Source: Octopus vulgaris (taxonomy: Eukaryota). Taken from it: a stretch of DNA of 64,000 nucleotides. The stretch's first letter is position 1, and each line of letters begins with the position of its first letter. The stretch lies in contig OX597818.1 in the NCBI GenBank assembly GCA_951406725.2, positions 18,352,001 through 18,416,000 of the forward strand, written 5' to 3'. Shown here in pieces: positions 7,525-62,865 of the stretch. Both the position numbers and the translations under genes were made by a program. Under the pieces are notes generated by a model that was not told where the DNA came from, did no database searches, and was given only the letters and a program-made list of their open reading frames with translations.

Positions 7525-11668
<4,144 letters not shown>

Positions 11669-21885: not shown

Positions 21886-23903
21886 CATACACACATATAC
21901 AAATGCGTGAGTGTATATATATATTCACGCAAACACAACTTAAGAACGACATTTTATCGCGTTTTCATAATATACTAAATGGATTGTCTCTCTAGCTTTC
22001 TTGTTTCTTATTTCCTTTCATATTTTCTTTCTTTTTTCCCTCCTTTCTTTAACAATTAATTTCCTTCACTTCATGTCAATTTTAGGAGATAAAAATAAAA
22101 AATAAAAAATAAAATTAAAGATAAAATAAAATGTCTACATACACAATAAGCAAACAATACACCTGCAAACACACACACACACATACAATTGCACACCTAC
22201 ATATACATACAGGCTGAGATTCATAGCCGCTCCTGTACACTCCTACACGTTCGAAATATCATAGCAACAAACCGAAAACTAATTTGGAAACTGAAAAATA
22301 TATTCCATAATATAAAGTTTTTAATGTATTTACTTTTAAAATTAACGGTTAGGCGATGAATTAAAAGGATAAAGCGTAGAAGAAAATACAAAACAACAGA
22401 CAATTAAGAACAATTTAGAACGTAGAAAACATATTAGTCATTCAAATACGCATAAAAAATTATTAGCTTCATTTAAGCATTTTTTTTATTTGGTGTCAAA
22501 ATGTCTAAGCGAAGTTGAGATTTTGTGTGTTTTTAAATGTTTAATACGTATTTTCTTAGGTGGAATTGTTCATAATTATCTGTTGTGTCAGTGACCAGGT
22601 CGCGATTAGTGCGATGAAAAATTTTAATGCAAATAATAAATGTTTAAATGAAGTCAACAGATTTTGTTAGCTTTTGAATGCCTACTAATGTGTACCTTCG
22701 TCGCAGTAATTGTTTTACTATCACCGAATGGCCTCAGATCAAATCACTTGCCAATAAAGAACATCCTCCAAAAATAATTATGAAATTTCGTAATAACGAT
22801 GATGATAATAATAATAATAATGGTTTCAATTGTTGGCACAAGGCTAGCAATTTTGGGGGCAGGAATAAGTCGAATACATCGGCCTTAGTGCTCGACTGGC
22901 ACTTATTTTATCGATACCGAAAGGATGAAAGTTAAAGTCGACCTTGGCGGTATTGAACCTAGACCTAAAGACGAACGAAATGCTGCTAAGTATTTTAACT
23001 AGCGTGCTAACGCTTCTGCCAGCTCGCCGCTCAAATAATGATGATAATAATAATTATTTCTAATTTTTGCCATAAGGGCAGCTGGGGGGAGGTTGGCAAG
23101 ATATATAAAACATTCCATGAATAAGCGGCAGACGGTGCTACAGCTCCAGACAAAAGAGGGACTCATAAAACCCAAAGCCATCCCCATTAGAAGAGGAATA
23201 TTCCAAGGAGACACATTCTCTCCACTCCTTTTCTGCTTGGCACTGACACCTTTATCTGATATGCTAAACAGAACTGGATGTGGATAAAACTGTTACGGTA
23301 AAACAATCAGCCATCTCTTATATATGGATGATATAAAACTGTACGCTACAAATGTTAAACAGCTGGAAACATTACTACAGGCAGTACATGGATTTACCAA
23401 AGAAATAAATACGAAATTTGGCTTAGAAAAATGTGCCAAAGCAACCTTGAAAAGAGGAAAACTAGTTAATAGTAGCAACATTACACTAGATAAAGCAAAT
23501 GAAATGAGAGAATTAGACCAAAGCCAGACATACAAATACTTAGGAATCAATGAACCAGATACGATACAACAGACACAAATGAAAGAGAAGATGGGAAAAG
23601 AATGCTATAGACGAATTAGATTAATATTGAAAACAGAGCTCAAAGCGAAAAAATAAGATAATAGGTATCAATACTCTAGCCGCCCCAGTTATAAGTTACA
23701 GCTACAATATTCTTAACTGGTCTCTAAATTACCTAATCAGGGAAACAAGCAAAATAATGACAGGATTTAGGATGCACTATCCAAAATCTGATATAGAAAG
23801 GTTACACAATTCTATATTTAAGAAATGAGGAATTATGTATATTATTTACATTATTTACATTATTTAGATTTGACGGATATTTATCCTCATCTTGTTTGTT
23901 GTT

Positions 23904-23949
23904 AACACAACGTTTCGGTTTATATACCCTCCAGCCTTCATCAGGTGTT
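23904..23949 (-). ncRNA. Minimal type I hammerhead motif (stem II partly mutated)
   Basis: aacac CTGATGA a ggctg-gagggtatat-aaacc GAAAC GTT gtgtt. Confidence 0.7.
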
Positions 23950-23996
23950 TTGGGGAAATTTCGAACCTGGGTTCTCATTCCTAAGGTATTTTTCGA

Positions 23997-24032
<36 letters not shown>

Positions 24033-24135
24033 CATCATCATTATTATGATTATTATTCAGGTCACTGCTTGGAATCGAACTCGGAATCTTGGGGTTAGTA
24101 GCCCGCGCTCTTAACCACTACACCATATGCCAGTG

Positions 24136-24181
24136 GACACCTGATGAAGGCTGGAGAGAATATCAGCCGAAACGTTGTGTT
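24136..24181 (+). ncRNA. Minimal type I hammerhead ribozyme motif
   Basis: gacac CTGATGA a GGCTG-gagagaatat-CAGCC GAAAC GTT gtgtt; loop-less palindromic stem III (ACGT); predicted cut after 24176. Confidence 0.8.
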
Positions 24182-25081
24182 AACAACAAACAAGATGAGG
24201 ACAAATATCCGTCAAATGTAAATAATGTAAATAATGTATAGAAAGGTTATATTAATACAACGTATCGAAGGTGGTAGATGCCTTATCCAGCTAGAAAACC
24301 ATTACAAAATAGCCACCATATGTCTACAGCAAGGAAAACTAATACAAATAGGTATAAAACATGAACAAAACAAAATAAAAAGTGTTGCCAGTCTTTAAGG
24401 AAACTGACAAATATAAAAAAAAAGAAGTCATAGTACCTAACTACTATGAAGAAAAAGAAGAAACAACGAAAGCTGTAAAACAACTGAAACAGCAGAAGCT
24501 CCCACCAACGTTATATAGAATCTCAGCGTCTATTCAGGCAATTAATAATTACAAAAACAGTATTAATACCCAAAAGGTCATCTTCGTTTCCAACTTAACG
24601 TGGAGGTTGTATTTATGCTCCAAAATGATGTTTGTCCCCTAAAGTAAGATATGGTACTTATTTCTTTACTACCCACAAGGGGCTAAACACAGAGGGACAA
24701 ACAAGGACAGACAAATGGATTAAGTCGATTACATCGACCCTAGTGCGTAACTGGTACTTATTTAATCAACCCCGAAAGGATGAAAGGCAAAGTCGATCTC
24801 GGCGGAATTTGAACTCAGAATGTCGTGGCAGACGAAATACCGTTAGACATTTCGCCCGGCGTGCTAACGATTCTGCCAGCTCGCCTCGAAGCAAGATATG
24901 GTACCTCCTTAGGCCGGAAATACTCTCCAAATTAAAAGCTATTGGTGTCTTTGTTCTATGAAACTTATGTCTAAAGCCATCGAGCCACACTCGTCACATA
25001 AGAAAAAAGACGAAATATCAGCTGCAACTTAAGTAACAAACTTTTATGAAACGTTAACCACTTTATTATATCGTACAAAAA

Positions 25082-29402: not shown

Positions 29403-29442
29403 TAATAATAATAATGATAATAATAATAATAATAATTTACTG

Positions 29443-31578
29443 CAGTGATATCACAAAGGCTGAACAAGCACCTGGACGAAAACAAACTGTTCCCAGAAGA
29501 GCAGAAAGGATGCCGCAAAGGCTCATATGGCTGTAAAGATCAACTAATGATTAATAAAGCCATAACTGAAGACAGCCACAGAAAGAAGAAAGGCCTCAGT
29601 ATGGCCTGGATTGACTACAAAAAGGCGTTTGATAGCATCCCCCACACATGGATCCTCGAAACACTAGCCATTAACAAAGTAGCACCAACAATCATAAAAT
29701 TCATAGAGCACTCTATGAATAAATGGCAAACAGTCCTACACCTCCAAACAAAAGAGGGACTCATGAAAACCAAAGACATCCCCATTAAAAGAGGAATATT
29801 CCAGGGAGACACGCTCTCTCCACTCCTTTTCTGCTTGGCACTGTCACCTCTATCTGATATGCTAAATAGAACTGGATGCGGATATAAATGTTACGGCAAA
29901 ACGATCAGCCACCTTTTATATATGGATGACCTAAAACTATACGCTGCAAATGACAAACAGCTGGAAACACTATTAAAGACAGTTCATGGATTTACCAAAG
30001 AAATAGATATGAAATTTGGATTAGAAAAATGCGCCAAAGTAACCATGAAAAGAGGAAAACTAGTTAAGAGTAACAACATCACACTAGATAAAACCAATGA
30101 AATAAAAGAATTAGACCAAAGCCAAACTTACAAATACTTAGGAATCCATGAACTAGATAAGACACAACACACACAAATGAAAGAGAAAATAAAAAAAGAA
30201 TATTATAGACGAGTTAGATCAATACTAAACACAGAGCTCAATGCTAAAAACAAGATAATAGGTATCAACACTTTAGCTGTCCCAGTTATAAGTTACAGCT
30301 ACAATATCCTTAACTGGACACGAAATGAACTGACCAAAATAGATAGGAAAACAAGAAAAATAATGACAGGATCTAGGATGCATCACCCAAAATCTGACAT
30401 AGAAAGACTATATATACAACGTATAGAAGGTGGTAGAGGCCTTATACAGCTTGAAAGCTACTATAAAATAACCACCATAGGACTGCAAAAATATCTACTT
30501 CAGAAGGAAGGAAAACTGATCCAGATAGCGGCAAAACACGAGCAAAACAAAAAACTGTTCTCAGTATTTAAGGAAGCTGACAATTACAAACAAGAAATCA
30601 TACCACCTAATAAACATGAAGAAGAAGAAGAAGATGAAGAAACAACAAAAGCTATAAAACAAATGAAATCCAAACTAAAAACAGAACAGCAACGAACCAT
30701 GATAAAACGATGGCAAGAAAAGCCCCTTCATGGTAAATACTGGACTAAACTAAACGCAAAAGAAATAGACAAAGAAAAATCCCAGCAATGGTTGAGAAGC
30801 TCAGGACTCAAAGCAGAAACAGAGGGATTTTTAATTGCAGCACAAGACCAAAGCCTCCCCACCAGAAATTACCAAAAACATGTAATGAAAAGAAATATTA
30901 CAAGTAACTGCAGAATATGTGGAGATGGACAAGAAACAATAAATCATATTATCTCTAGCTGCCCAGTCCTGGCTAAGAAGGAATATATTCACAGACATGA
31001 CAGAGTTGGAACCTACATACATTGGAAGCTATGCCAACATTATGGAATAACAACAGAAAAAAGATGGTATAGGCACACACCAGAAAAGGTCACAGAAAAC
31101 GAGAAAGCAACCATACTCTGGGATATGCCGATACACACAGATAGAGAAATTAAGGCCAACAGACCAGATATAGTTGTCAGAGATCATGAAGGAAAAAAAT
31201 GCTTTTTAATTGATGTATCAATACCGGCAGATGACAACGTGTCTCTAAAAGAAATGGAGAAACTCTCAAAATACAAAGACCTGGAAATAGAGGTAACTAG
31301 AATGTGGAATCTGAAAACAGAAACAATTCCTATCATAGTAGGTGCATTAGGCATGATAAAAAAATATTCAGACAAATACATAACAAAAACACCAAGACTT
31401 ACAAACACATATAACATACAGAAAATTGCACTACTAGGCACTGCCCACATCCTACGCAGAACACTTTCCATACAATAACCATCAGAGCATCACAACAAAT
31501 CACAGCACATACCCAAGGCACACAGAGCTGCGCTCGGTAGTGAAGTGAAAGCACGCTATAAAAATAAAAATAAAACTA

Positions 31579-35415: not shown

Positions 35416-35968
35416 CTGATACAGTACCAAGCAGCGGCTCTCATGGCTTCTGATCTTAACTGACTGGAAATGTTATCATGTACATTGTTTTGTCTTGGTA
35501 TAAAAGATGGGCTACAGCAAATATTCTGCTCAACACCAAAGATTTGTTTGTCAGTTGCTTGACCTTAACCAGTTGACCATGTCCCTCAGTGGCTGATGAT
35601 ATGTGTATCTCTGATCACGAGCAGAAGTAGTGGGGGAGCATCATAGCCAAGTGTTGAGAGGGATTCTTTGGGGTTTTAATAATTCACCTCTGGAAACATG
35701 GGTGTTTCATTCAACATCCTTAAACAACCCTTAATCAGGGACCTTTTGAGTAGGATGGTTTACCCGACCAGAAGAAAATTCTAACTGGACCCCACCCGCA
35801 AGGTCATGCACTATTTATCTTGTTATGAGATCACCATGTCGTGCACATATGGTTGTGATGCATGTGCCTGGTGTACCCTTATCAGACGGGTAGTCATGAT
35901 GGGTATACTGGGTTTCGTATATTTTACCCCAGTGTCACTTTGATGGCATGCACTGCTCTCTCACTCAA
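35416..35968 (+). mobile_element. ~550-bp non-coding interspersed repeat ending in (TAA)n; inverted copy at 38352-38901
   Basis: Colinear reverse complement with 38352-38901 with nearly the same ends; fragment near 28840-28970. Confidence 0.8.
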
Positions 35969-36050
35969 TAATAATAATAATTATTACTACTACTACTAAT
36001 AATAATAATAATAATAATAATAATTATTATTATTATTAATATTATTATAA

Positions 36051-36118
<68 letters not shown>

Positions 36119-36257
36119 GTAATAATTAACACGGCGAGCTGGCAGGAGTGTTAGCAAGCCGGGCAAAATGTTTGGAAATACTTCGTCTGTCTTTATGTTG
36201 AGTTCGAATTCCGCCGAAGTCGATTTTGCCTTTCATCCTTTCGGTCTCGATAAAATA

Positions 36258-37151
36258 CGAAGTTGTATCAAAAGGACTAGTTCTCTAGCGCGCCAGCAGA
36301 TGGCAGCACACGTTGTGTGCGCAGTGAGAGCTAGCAGTGACTTTCATGAGGCAGTGTACCGAGTGACATCGCTATATTTACTTTGCAAGTTGTGAAATTC
36401 GTGTTTTTGTGATTGTGTGCATGCTGTAGTTTACGATTTTTGTGTCATGGATAGGAAGTTGGAACAAAGAGCCAACGTGAAAATTTGCGTTAAATTTGGG
36501 AAGTCTGCTACTGAAACATTGAGCATATTTCAGCAAGCTTACGGTGACGAGGTAATGGATCGTACGCTATGTTTCAAGTGGCACCGGCACTTCAAAAGCG
36601 GAAGAACGTTCCTGAAAGATGATGAACGATCTGTAAAAACCTACCAAGAGTGTTATCCCCGGAAAAATCCATCAGTTTGTGCATGAGGATCGTCGGAGGA
36701 CAACCAACAACGTTTTGAAGCGTTTGAGGAGGATATTCGGCGAAAGTGACCAGATCTGTGGAGTGTGAAGGTTTGAATTCTTCACGACGACAATGCACCC
36801 TGTTAGCGATCTCTCCTCGTGCGCTTCTCAGCAAAAACAACATGGTATCGATTCTCCACCCGCCTTATTCGCCAGATTTAGTACCTGCGGAATTCTGTCT
36901 CCCTAGATGAAAAAGCAGCCCAAAGGTCACTGTTTTATCACCGATGTCGAGATACAGATCGAATAGTTGAAGGTCTCGACTCGCTCTACGGAAAACGACT
37001 TCCAGGCCTGATTCCAAAAGTGGCTGGAACGCTGGGACCGGTTTATTGCTGCACAAGATGACTATTTCGAAGGAGATGATGTTAAAACTTACGTAAATAA
37101 GATATTTTTTATCAAACATAAATACTCCGGAAACGTTTTGGTACCATCTCG
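36258..37151 (+). mobile_element. Mariner DNA transposon (degraded) nested in an S3 SINE
   Basis: TA at 36256-57 and 37152-53, degenerate TIRs, EQRANVKICVKFGKSATET..W.RHFKSGR, HDDNAP, HPPYSPDL; SINE halves 36131-36257 and 37152-37235 rejoin. Confidence 0.9.
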
Positions 37152-37528
37152 TAAGTACCAGTTGAGTATTGGGGTCGATATAATCGATTTATCCCCTCCC
37201 CCGAAATTGATGGCCTTGTGACAAAATTTGAAGTCATTATTATTATTACTGGATTGTTTTAAAAGTGTGGGCTTTAAATGTATTTTTCTTTTACAAAACT
37301 GATTCCAATTGATATAATGATGGAAATTGTTATGGCATTATAAGATAATAAATTAACTTAGTACTTCATTGATAGACATTAATTTCTTTCAAAACTCAAA
37401 ATATATTGTTCATACAGGCTATAAACTATTACTGTATTGACAATAAACCACTATGGTTTGCAGTTTACAACATTATTTTTAATATCTATAATAAGATACT
37501 TGTTAAAATTTACAACAATGTTTACTGA

Positions 37529-37605
37529 ATTATACAATATGATATAGGTTACATTATACAATATGATATAGGTTACATTATACAATATGATATAGGTTAC
37601 ATTAT
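37529..37605. repeat. 24-bp tandem repeat x3
   Basis: attatacaatatgatataggttac repeated three times. Confidence 0.9.
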
Positions 37606-38351
37606 TCAATAACACTATGTTTCATAATAGAGCTTAGTTAGTAATTAAAGATTTTGTATACATTTCGTAATATCATACATGTGTTAAACTGAAATATTTA
37701 CATTTCACATTATGACACGGTTTGCAGTGTGGAATATTACTTTACATAATATGATGCAGCCGTATTTTAGAGAGATATTCATATTTCATGATGTGATAGG
37801 AATCTCAGTTTGTATTTATTCGATATTACAGAATGCAGGTTGAAAACACATCAACATTATTTCCCAACATGTTACATGTTAAATTTAACTGTAATATTTT
37901 CAAAATATTATATCATGCTACAGATTGAGTTTACGCGAAATATTTATAACAATATTCTCCTACTATGATACAAGTTTGAGGATGCAACGAATGAAGCTCA
38001 AACCATATCTAGAGAAGCATATTAAATGTACATTTAACCTAAAATTTCTCAAGATACATGTTTTTGTATATATTTTATGAGATGACAACACACTTATGTT
38101 CTTTATTATAAATTAGTAGCCTAAAGGGAGGGTGCTGGTAGGATTGTTAGCGCGCCGGATAAATGATTTAGCAGCGTTTCTTCCTGCATTATGTTTTGCT
38201 TTCAAATCCCACTGACGACGACTTCGCTTTTTACCCTTTGGGAGTCGATAAAATAAGTACCAGTTAAATACGGAGGTTGATTTAATCGACTATCACCTTA
38301 CCCCAAAATTTCAGTCCTTCCGCCTATAGCAGAGAGCATCGTTATTATCAT

Positions 38352-38900
38352 TGAGAGAGCAGTGCATGCCATCAGAGAGACACTGGGGAAAAAATATGAA
38401 ACCCAGTATACCCATCATGACTACCCGTTTGATAAGGGTACATTAGACACATGCATCACAACCATATTTGCGCGACATGGTGATCTCATATGAAGATAAA
38501 CAGCGTATGACCTTGCAGGTGAGACCCAGTTAGAATTTTTTTCGGATCGAGTTGCACATCCCGCTCAAAAGGTCACTGAATAAGAGTTATTTAAAGATGT
38601 TGGACAAACCACCCATATTTCCAGAGGTGAATTATCCAAACACCAAAGAATTCCTCTCAACACATGGCTATCATGCTCCCCTACTACTTCTGCTCGTGGT
38701 CAGTGATGAACATATTGTCATCCACCAAGGCACATGCTCAACTGGTTATGGTCAAACAACTGACAAGCAAATCTGTGGTATTGAGCAGGATATTTGCTGT
38801 AGCCCATCTTTTATACCAAGACAAACAATGTACATGGGAACACATCTAATCAGTTAAGATCCGAAGCCATGAGAGTCACTGTCTAGTACTGCATCAGGGC

Positions 38901-51999: not shown

Positions 52000-52245
52000 G
52001 TGTGTGGGGGATGTAACGAAATAGGTGCTTTTCTCCAGGCTATCGTCTCCGTCCTCCTTTTCCTCTTTTCTGGAATTGTTCCTCTATCCGACGAAGAGCC
52101 ATGCTCGAAATGTCATTTCTATACCAAGTTTTCCATGAAAAATCTAAAATTTCCACTGAGCGTCAATCTGATATGTCCACTGTGTACGTCCAATTAACTT
52201 TTGTTGTGTTTCCTGTTTTATTTTGTTCTTGGATTTGCCTTCACA
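52000..52245 (+). mobile_element. pLTR-type repeat with degenerate hammerhead (52085-52116), similar to 1532-1700
   Basis: CCGACGA a GAGC-cat-GCTC GAAAT GTC, followed by gagcgtcaatctgat and a T-rich tail into (CA)n. Confidence 0.5.
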
Positions 52246-52348
52246 CATACACACACACGCTCCCTCCCAAATACTTGACAAATATATTTAAAAATCAGAA
52301 ATATTGAATTTCTAAATCTCTCGTAGAGACATGTACGGTGGTGGGGCG

Positions 52349-52735
52349 ATAGAATGGTTGTATACTGTCAATCTAACAAGAACGTGACAGTAGGGGGTAC
52401 ACCACCGCTGTATAGCACTAGGAAGCATCGAACGCCTCCTGATGGCTTTGACACATTTTTCCCTGTGTCCTTATATACATTTACGAAGGGGAGACAAACA
52501 CCCCCGGCTGCCGGAACTGCATCTAGGGACACGTGTTTCAGGATCGTTGTCCTTCATCGGCCTAGAGTAGCAGACACCGGGGGTGTTTGTCTCCCCTTCG
52601 TAAATGTATATAAGGACACAGGGAAAAATGTGTCAAAGCCATCAGGAGGCGTTCGATGCTTCCTAGTGCTATACAGCGGTGGTGTACCCCCTACTGTCAC
52701 GTTCTTGTTAGATTGACAGTATACAACCATTCTAT
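52349..52735. repeat. Perfect 159-bp inverted repeat with 69-bp spacer
   Basis: Arms 52349-52507 and 52577-52735; identical peptides appear in opposite-strand ORFs 52354+ and 52554-. Confidence 0.97.
52517..52573 (-). ncRNA. Type I hammerhead ribozyme (U4C variant) in the inverted-repeat spacer
   Basis: ctgc tac tctagg CCGATGA agga-caacga-tcct GAAAC acgt GTC cctaga t gcag; all three stems pair; stem III ACACGTGT is palindromic. Confidence 0.85.
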
Positions 52736-53053
52736 ATTTATAAATCATTTTATTCAAAGTATAGCGTATTCTTGTGATTGTATATATTTTAGTTGTAAAC
52801 CCGAGCAAACCCAGCTATAGCTGCTAGTATGTGTGTTGTTGTCATTGTGTGTGTTGTTGTGTGAGTGTGTTTGCTTGCATTTACACATAAACACTAGCTG
52901 TAGCAATAGGTGCCCTTCCTCAGGTTTGTACCTACATGGTTGTTTATATGTATCCTATATGTATATATGCGTACGTGTATGTATGTATGTATGTATGTAT
53001 GTATGTATGTATGTATGTATGTATGTATGTATGTATGTATGCATGCATGCATG

Positions 53054-53086
<33 letters not shown>

Positions 53087-53885
53087 CTGGCTCTATGTAG
53101 ACGACGGTGAACAGGTGTGGTCGCCGTTTGTGAGGCACGCTTTCCCGCAGCTCGTCTCCATGACCGAACTGCAGTCGTGGATCAAAAAGAGGCCGAGGAA
53201 GGGCGAATGGCACCGCGAGTGTCGCGTTGCTCTCAAGCAACTCTGCCGTCCTGGGTCGACCTTAAGTGACTTCAATACAACCAAAGCATTCTATAGGGGT
53301 TTAGTGGAGGGGAGGTACGACGACGAGCTCGGGGCGAACCTGGACGTCGACGAGGAGTACCTGACCCGCCTGTTCAGGACGACTCTCGGGCCAGGGCCCA
53401 TGGACAACTTCCAGAGATCCCTGGCCTGGCAGTGCTACCGAGAAGCGCTACCCGTTCGGGATAAGCTCTACAGACACGGCTCGAGAAACACGGGGCCGAC
53501 CTGCCCGAGATGCGGTCAGAGCGACGAAACCGTTCTGCACGCACTCGTTCAGTGTCCAACAATTTCCGACCTGTGGGCTTATGTCGAACAACTGCTGTCA
53601 CGTGTGGGACGAGTCGGTTTATCAGCTGAGTCTATCGTCAATATTGTCACGCCTCCTTCCTTCAAACGGGAAGGAAGAGCTATTTTCATCATCCTTGTGG
53701 CTATGGCGAAGGAATGTATCTGGTGGACGCGTCTGAAAGGATTGGAGACAAACACTTTCCTCTCTGGTCAATCTCTCATCAACTTCTTCAAGTACCACTT
53801 GAAAAGGAAAGTGAGAGTAGAGAGGCAAGTTTTGTCTAGCGAATGTTTTAAAAAAAGATGGGTGAATGTAGCAAGAATGGCTACG
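53087..53885 (+). mobile_element. Internal C-terminal ORF2 fragment of the Tx1 family at 7632-11640
   Basis: Highly similar to 10766-11397; open frame with CPRCGQSDETVLHALVQC; embedded in (TATC)n/(TGTC)n. Confidence 0.93.
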
Positions 53886-53955
53886 TATGTCTGTCTGTCT
53901 GTCTGCCTGCCAGTCTGTTTGTCTGTCTGTCTGTCTATCTATCTATCTGTCTGTA

Positions 53956-62660: not shown

Positions 62661-62865
62661 AATGTGAGGTATACTAGCCATCTCAATATGGCTAACCACT
62701 AAGGGTGGGTGTTACTGTAGCTTGTAGCCCTACGAGGACATCGTCTCCAGCTGGCTTTAGGCACACTTTCTCCAGCTGGAGACGATGTTCTCCTGGGGCT
62801 ACAAGCTACAGTAACACCCACCCTTAGTGGTTAGCCATATTGAGATGGCTAGTATACCTCACATT
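62661..62865. repeat. 94-bp inverted repeat with 17-bp spacer (foldback element)
   Basis: Arms 62661-62754 and 62772-62865 with a few mismatches; arms meet at palindromic ccagctgg. Confidence 0.93.

Follow-up and report, generated by a model that had tools for sequence, protein, structure and literature searches.

Canonical type I hammerhead ribozymes (HHRs) with a 6-bp stem I and a 4-bp stem II mark retrozymes (PMC4209133, PMC7229834), and the type I HHRs of animals are described as dimer-dependent double hammerheads (PMC4209133). Penelope-like elements (PLEs) are the proposed mobilising partner of animal retrozymes (PMC7229834; bioRxiv 10.64898/2026.07.22.740005). Inverted 5′-truncated copies and head-to-head palindromic junctions, which have been read as products of self-priming, are typical of PLEs, and the tails and TSDs of PLE insertions are optional (PMC3846280, PMC8557442). 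In vitro, the PLE machinery acts mainly on uncleaved RNA and cuts AT-rich DNA (PMC11167929). The formation of PLE inverted repeats has been called unresolved (PMC3846280), and the later steps of PLE insertion are described as 'yet to be validated' (PMC11167929).

Pairs of minimal HHRs lie on opposite strands, 100-700 bp apart, in Schistosoma (PMC4209133), and the Sm-alpha hammerhead repeat of this genus is named in PMC6155905. The U4C core is a natural variant of a viroid hammerhead, with a much lower activity in vitro, yet infectivity is supported (PMC3088659). An octopus repeat annotation reports recently active Penelope families, and ribozymes are unmentioned in its main text (PMC13282606).

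The window analysed here is a 64,000-nucleotide stretch of Octopus vulgaris DNA, which contains a palindrome at 52349-52735. Its arms, 52349-52507 and 52577-52735, are 159 nt each and 100% complementary across a 69-nt gap, as found by blastn and an inverted-repeat search, so that the absence of mismatches, judged by eye in the sequence-only reading, is borne out by computation. The palindrome is real and comprises one copy of an abundant hammerhead-bearing repeat and an inverted second copy of its tail end. The features of the locus are as follows.

52312-52341, plus strand: left-flank stretch, resembling a 30-nt sequence situated directly before the core in another contig.
52349-52507, minus strand: left arm, the native 3′ body of 159 nt, which follows the ribozyme and ends in ...CAACCATTC and then TAT.
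52508-52576, minus strand: 69-nt spacer, the 5′ part of the element with the ribozyme.
52517-52573, minus strand: type I hammerhead of canonical architecture with a U4C core, identified by motif descriptor and folding.
52527-52528, minus strand: cleavage site after GUC, between 52528 and 52527, predicted from the hammerhead consensus.
52577-52735, plus strand: right arm, an additional copy of the body, 5′-truncated and inverted, which faces the native one head-to-head.
52625-52686, plus strand: core of ~60 nt with a predicted stem-loop, a candidate recognition signal, also present in a sister subfamily whose sequence differs to its left and right.
52667, plus strand: private T (mirror A at 52417), present in both arms, where the family has G.
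52736-52742, plus strand: TA-rich end or target, where the family depth collapses.

On balance, the locus is probably a young insertion of a high-copy, likely non-coding retrozyme-like repeat of ~230 nt, the inverted repeat likely being an integration scar left by PLE machinery. No TSD is found at the flanks of 52349-52735, where the longest repeats are 5-6 nt and lie off the junctions, and the ORF list of the window contains no RT or GIY-YIG ORF in or beside the element. Exact-pattern scans of metagenome_contigs, genome_contigs and viral_contigs gave no match. The only stop-to-stop frame that crosses the palindrome, 129 aa long, was not accepted as a gene; indels that break the frame are numerous in the family.

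The hammerhead is read on the minus strand of the spacer. Its distal stem CUGC/GCAG, in which 52573-70 pairs with 52517-20, is followed by an internal loop and by a stem I of 6 bp (52566-61 with 52527-22), next to which stands the core CCGAUGA (52560-54). Stem II has 4 bp and the 6-nt loop CAACGA, GAAAC is located at 52539-35, and stem III has 2 bp with a palindromic loop, together forming the palindrome ACACGUGU, with GUC at 52530-28. Every position of the type I core CUGANGA...GAAA...UH is present in the spacer HHR except for U4C. The hammerhead descriptor has two matches in the whole window, one in the spacer and one at 24141 on the plus strand, and its mean is 0 matches over 100 Markov-1 shuffles of the window, with 0 of 20,000 shuffles of the spacer matching. 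The earlier claim of a complete type I hammerhead on this strand, with the stems, core and GUC as proposed, is confirmed by the descriptor match and its absence from shuffled sequence. The folding energy of the spacer (z -0.76) is weak evidence alone. In Rfam, no family matches at its gathering score and no hammerhead family appears at E ≤ 10, the matches at that threshold being generic miRNA-hairpin models far under their gathering scores. The Rfam models miss a high-copy U4C hammerhead, and descriptors demanding CUGANGA would likely miss it too.

The repeat family is abundant. Parts of 52150-52950 occur in 20 of the 24 runs listed, under five organism labels, and four runs (X1, X2 and X5, DNA; X9, RNA by guess only) were aligned on 52478-52935 at 85% likeness. 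The contigs aligned in the three DNA runs, which represent organisms A and B, number 2129, 944 and 1483, and 10 X9 contigs carry family copies, the RNA nature of this run being only guessed and contigs being unable to show expression. The summed contig depth in X2, relative to the unique right flank (17.6), amounts to ~2,900x on the spacer and ~11,300x on the arm, which is no copy number and means 'very many copies' only. The arm exceeds the HHR 3.9-4.9x in family depth, which drops away at ~52740; 5′ truncation of copies that keep a fixed 3′ end would give this profile. The X2 depth is 212,815 at 52718-33, 15,064 at 52734-49 and 17.6, thus single-copy, from 52750. As the family depth collapses at 52736-52742, the copies have no common tail of 30-40 nt, and none is present on the right end of the locus in the contigs aligned over 52478-52935. 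From ~52740, 18 X5 contigs (organism B) run on into (TA)n, and X1 and X5 have no cover over 52750-52813, gaps which prove nothing.

The unit measures ~230 nt from the HHR to the 3′ end. The inner 30 nt of the left arm and the spacer are bridged by other copies with 4-12 differences (X1 records 1 and 2; X5 records 17 and 18), in X9 records 25 and 26 the spacer continues in native order into 71-114 nt of the arm, and arm-matching pieces from other copies break off at 52577-52579, where the loose letters in X5 and X9 read as the 3′ half of a hammerhead. Natively, the ribozyme thus precedes the body (52576 to 52349, minus strand), and the right arm is the added inverted copy. It had been stated that the arm lies 5′ of the ribozyme, the reverse of a second hammerhead-bearing element at 23805-24236; this is wrong, as native copies have the HHR and then the arm, the same order as in that element. 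Across the family, the body follows the HHR, the 3′ end is fixed and in many cases continues into (TA)n, and head-to-head copies with varying starts recur. Upstream of the HHR in native copies, two differing loose ends occur among those listed (282 other rows exist).

Loose ends of the sister subfamily are located at 52625, 52653 and 52686, and the fold of the core between them is not significant (z -1.49). The left-flank stretch 52312-52341 is identical at 24 of 30 positions to the sequence 5′ of the element core in run X9 record 28, the best of 200 shuffled motifs reaching 21, and is either a remnant of the sister subfamily or a repeated insertion target. Another variant of the family has a different palindromic stem III and a different 3′ strand of stem I.

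No substitution in the core or in stems I and II is listed at ≥3% of depth in the four runs, where the listed variation of the HHR is confined to loop II (52546) and an insertion in loop III (52531). Variable sites number 1 of 56 in the HHR vs 15 of 159 in the arm, a difference which is not significant (Fisher p 0.076), and the U4 form is absent at ≥3% among the family contigs aligned at 85% likeness. The active monomer fold lies 2.7 kcal/mol above the minimum-energy fold, and stem III is unformed in the monomer ensemble and has 8 bp in the predicted dimer. The minimum-energy fold of two copies is the active double hammerhead, at -38.9 vs -29.2 kcal/mol for two monomers. The spacer HHR is predicted by these folds to cut mainly as a dimer via the palindromic stem III, and a single copy would thus be a poor cutter. 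Stems I and II persist within the full hairpin fold, with pair probabilities of 0.73-1.0. The function suggested in the sequence-only reading, a dsRNA hairpin capped by a self-cleaving loop, is unsupported, as the ribozyme carries the U4C core, its monomer disfavours the active fold by the margin given above, it is predicted to need a dimer, and no transcript of the locus was seen in the runs.

The private base bears on the origin of the second arm. G accounts for 99.95%, 99.98% and 99.95% of the depth at 52667 in X1, X2 and X5, respectively. The non-G depth in X2, a run that may be the source sample, is 36.9, which is 2.1x the unique-flank depth of 17.6 and therefore fits two arms at one locus, with no third copy; the non-G remainder is 325 in X1 and 287 in X5 and may include other letters. 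As both arms share a base that >99.9% of the family depth lacks, one arm was likely copied from the other. The simplest account is a first-strand cDNA error copied by fold-back, possible alternatives being gene conversion at a later time and twin priming with a source locus that X2 lacks. The private T also breaks a predicted G-C pair in the stem of the core at 52625-52686.

Similar joints recur elsewhere in the family. At least 15 distinct joints are listed, all on short contigs aligned at the loose setting of 85% likeness, their sides measuring 21-43 nt; one has the native order, and in 6 of the 14 others the antisense spacer side is joined to the sense arm, as follows.

Head-to-head joints: 52505>52579, 52544>52603, 52553>52673, 52561>52616, 52564>52626, 52574>52642.

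Each of the six is found in one contig, at a depth of 8.7-181.7, and they thus represent independent head-to-head insertions. The native copy extends 17-47 nt upstream of the cut in five of them, with loops of 63-142 nt, and in the sixth, from X5, the junction is self-complementary and closes a loop of 8 nt immediately after the cut site. Three further opposite-strand joints are of uncertain orientation, and two or all three of them may likewise be head-to-head. Four of the 14 resemble internal deletions or subfamily differences, and one is head-to-tail, its downstream unit beginning at the cut site in short contigs. No joint regenerating a full HHR occurs among the 15 listed, the contigs being short. 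Three of the 14 end within ~4 nt of the predicted cut site (p 0.10 under a uniform and 0.004 under a depth-weighted expectation, both post hoc). Inverted copies elsewhere in the family begin at varying positions, with like junctions in three runs, and most inverted copies, including that at 52349-52735, extend upstream of the predicted cut, in line with uncut RNA as the main PLE template in vitro (PMC11167929).

That the event is recent, and that it likely stems from fold-back or template switching in the course of reverse transcription, had been proposed from the sequence, and both points gain support from the private base common to the two arms and from the six further head-to-head joints. 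The ccgg at the arm ends is unproven as the priming homology: in the predicted fold of the cDNA, the terminal CCGG pairs with 52511-14 (p 0.93), vs a probability of 0.01 for the register seen, 52504-07, so that a realignment of 7 nt would be needed, and the other junctions have no overlap between their sides, several carrying inserted letters.

The mechanism we favour would begin with a PLE protein nicking AT-rich DNA and copying the RNA from its 3′ end. Copying would pass through the ribozyme, still uncleaved, and run on to a point 49 nt upstream of the cut, and the cDNA end would then fold back across the 69-nt ribozyme hairpin, prime itself and make the second arm. The long dsRNA hairpin would likely be a by-product. 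Against this account, the neighbouring element at 23805-24236 has both a TSD and a tail, and the element at 52349-52735 has neither. A more specific version is put forward tentatively and is conceivable rather than probable, namely that PLE machinery inserts, via cDNA fold-back, a family of canonical-HHR retrozymes whose U4C core is fixed and slowed, and that the paired arms of this family record both PLE second-strand priming and whether the template was cut or uncut. If true, this would provide structural evidence for the mobilisation of animal retrozymes by PLEs, which has so far been argued from co-occurrence and phylogeny.

The unit could instead be the terminal pseudo-LTR of an autonomous PLE, the locus then being a heavily 5′-truncated copy with the usual inverted pLTR. 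The layout fits PLE insertions (PMC3846280, PMC8557442), the ~230 nt compare with Adineta pLTRs of 193-218 bp (PMC3846280), and a TATA-like stretch is present in the arm; however, the HHRs of metazoan PLEs are described as minimal or atypical, whereas a canonical one is found here (PMC4209133), the tail is lacking and the loose ends listed have no upstream sequence in common, which makes this explanation unlikely. In vitro, the PLE protein acts on both strands, which it cleaves and extends (PMC11167929), as would suit a second arm made from a second RNA-primed cDNA at an opposite-strand nick (twin priming), the other explanation of the arms in this group being their later gene conversion. The lack of overlap at the other junctions, the inserted letters in several of them, their loops of 63-142 nt and the disfavoured fold-back register in the cDNA fold also speak for twin priming. 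We nevertheless consider such an origin quite unlikely, as the private base is in both arms, the 2.1x depth in X2 leaves no room for a third (source) copy and one X5 junction is a tight self-complementary hairpin.

Sm-alpha and Sj-alpha are SINE-like repeats with a 6-bp stem I with an internal loop and a 4-bp stem II with a 6-nt loop, and LINE 5′ inversions are known to invert without duplicating. The resemblance of the HHR to that of Sm-alpha, the continuation of 3′ ends into (TA)n, the LINE-like ORFs plentiful in the window (families judged by eye) and the GTTCGATGC in the arm, which we take to be B-box-like, would all suit a SINE that bears a hammerhead, as Sm-alpha of Schistosoma does, that depends on a LINE for its mobility and that carries 5′ inversions. 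It is very unlikely that the element is of this kind, as the whole 3′ end is duplicated here, unlike in LINE 5′ inversions, ARAGORN calls no tRNA at the element, and blastn of 52001-53000 against the window yields only matches of ≤17 nt between the element and other parts. A host-selected hairpin RNA gene, whose loop would self-cleave to release dsRNA, is hardly credible: stems I and II do survive in the full hairpin fold, but the locus is one of many similar insertion scars without a sign of conservation, and its hammerhead has the U4C core and a disfavoured active monomer. An assembly or chimeric-read artefact is scarcely to be believed either, as the symmetry ends at the family's 3′ end, the flanks differ on each side, the private base stands at 2.1x and like junctions are found in three runs. 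The right arm-to-flank junction is also matched in X2, where one contig spans 52714-52935 with 0 differences and only 22 nt on the arm side, under the 31-nt bridging rule. What an artefact has in its favour is that the inversion junction 52576|52577 is bridged by no piece among the 32 listed (4592 others exist) and that X2 could be the source sample. A MITE or TIR DNA transposon was rejected, as the inverted copies start variably, the native order is HHR then arm and a TSD is lacking.

The element at 23805-24236 contains minimal HHRs on both strands, a 13-bp TSD (23792 and 24237) and a one-sided extension of ~35-40 nt, and sits in an RT-like frame (insertion 23792-24249). Its interior comprises (AAT)n together with a minus-strand stretch that looks tRNA-like by eye, for which neither ARAGORN nor Rfam gives a call. 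It is a textbook PLE-type insertion and shows PLE-type integration in this genome. The element at 52349-52735 has no significant sequence similarity to it. The motif TTCTATATTT occurs at 23810, 52730 and 63253, which amounts to 3 matches vs 0.57 expected, counted post hoc, and stands twice at the ends of HHR-bearing insertions. It possibly reflects a common target preference; its occurrences at 23810 and 52730 were set aside as evidence, as they are in opposite orientation relative to the sense of each element. The stretch CCGACGA...GAAA at 52088-52115 on the plus strand, which lies 240 nt away from the element, has a 4-bp stem II but no stem I and was for this reason not accepted as a second ribozyme. 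It may be a chance occurrence or a decayed ribozyme; the similarity of the left flank to the element is not significant (121 of 300 shuffles are as good).

The window is AT-rich and microsatellite-rich and contains many LINE-like fragments (families by eye). A 680-aa open frame at 29436-31478 on the plus strand belongs, by eye, to an RT-like non-LTR element, has a restriction-like endonuclease motif at its end and is probably a young copy. Closely similar L1/Tx1-like RT fragments (family by eye) are located on the plus strand at 9241-11433 and 53080-53890, the latter bounded by microsatellites just right of the palindrome. Other inverted repeats include a near-perfect short one at 62713-62759 / 62768-62831, noted by eye, and one at 35489-38825 with 441-nt arms at 86%.

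The single locus is an ordinary retroelement scar, which is explained by known retroelement biology. The family bears on two questions, namely the enzyme that mobilises animal retrozymes and the origin of PLE inverted repeats, and with a short, abundant family carrying private mutations in paired arms, fold-back vs twin priming becomes testable from one assembly. The literature covered contains no description of this family, nor of inverted duplications in canonical-HHR retrozymes, most subscription papers, the supplements, Repbase and Dfam being outside its scope, and the family may be catalogued already. The word 'inverted' occurs 0 times in the main text of PMC7229834 and once, in a reference title, in bioRxiv 10.64898/2026.07.22.740005.

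Compared with known systems, the element resembles the animal non-LTR retrozymes, which likewise have a canonical type I HHR, a palindromic short stem III, a unit of 150-450 nt and very many copies, dispersed monomers being among the forms described (PMC7229834; bioRxiv 10.64898/2026.07.22.740005). Retrozymes are defined by tandem arrays and circular RNA (PMC7229834), whereas the family of 52349-52735 is known from short contigs and has a U4C core. This core change is identical to that of the viroid hammerhead (PMC3088659), with the difference that it appears nearly fixed here across a high-copy genomic family. The locus is like the EN+ PLEs with inverted pLTRs in its 5′ truncation, its head-to-head inverted 5′-truncated copy, its junction hairpin, its HHR near the start of the terminal unit and its AT-rich or (TA)n ends, and unlike them it is without an ORF, a 30-40 nt tail and a TSD and carries a canonical rather than a minimal HHR (PMC3846280; PMC8557442; PMC11167929; PMC4209133). 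The element thus appears to work like a PLE-mobilised retrozyme, its membership being incomplete on both sides, with no PLE ORF, tail, TSD or minimal HHR on the one and no array or circle on the other. Its stem layout and dispersed high-copy unit are also those of Sm-alpha and Sj-alpha, which were compared by description only. The combination of a canonical U4C hammerhead with recurrent fold-back of the PLE type makes the family useful for tests of mechanism.
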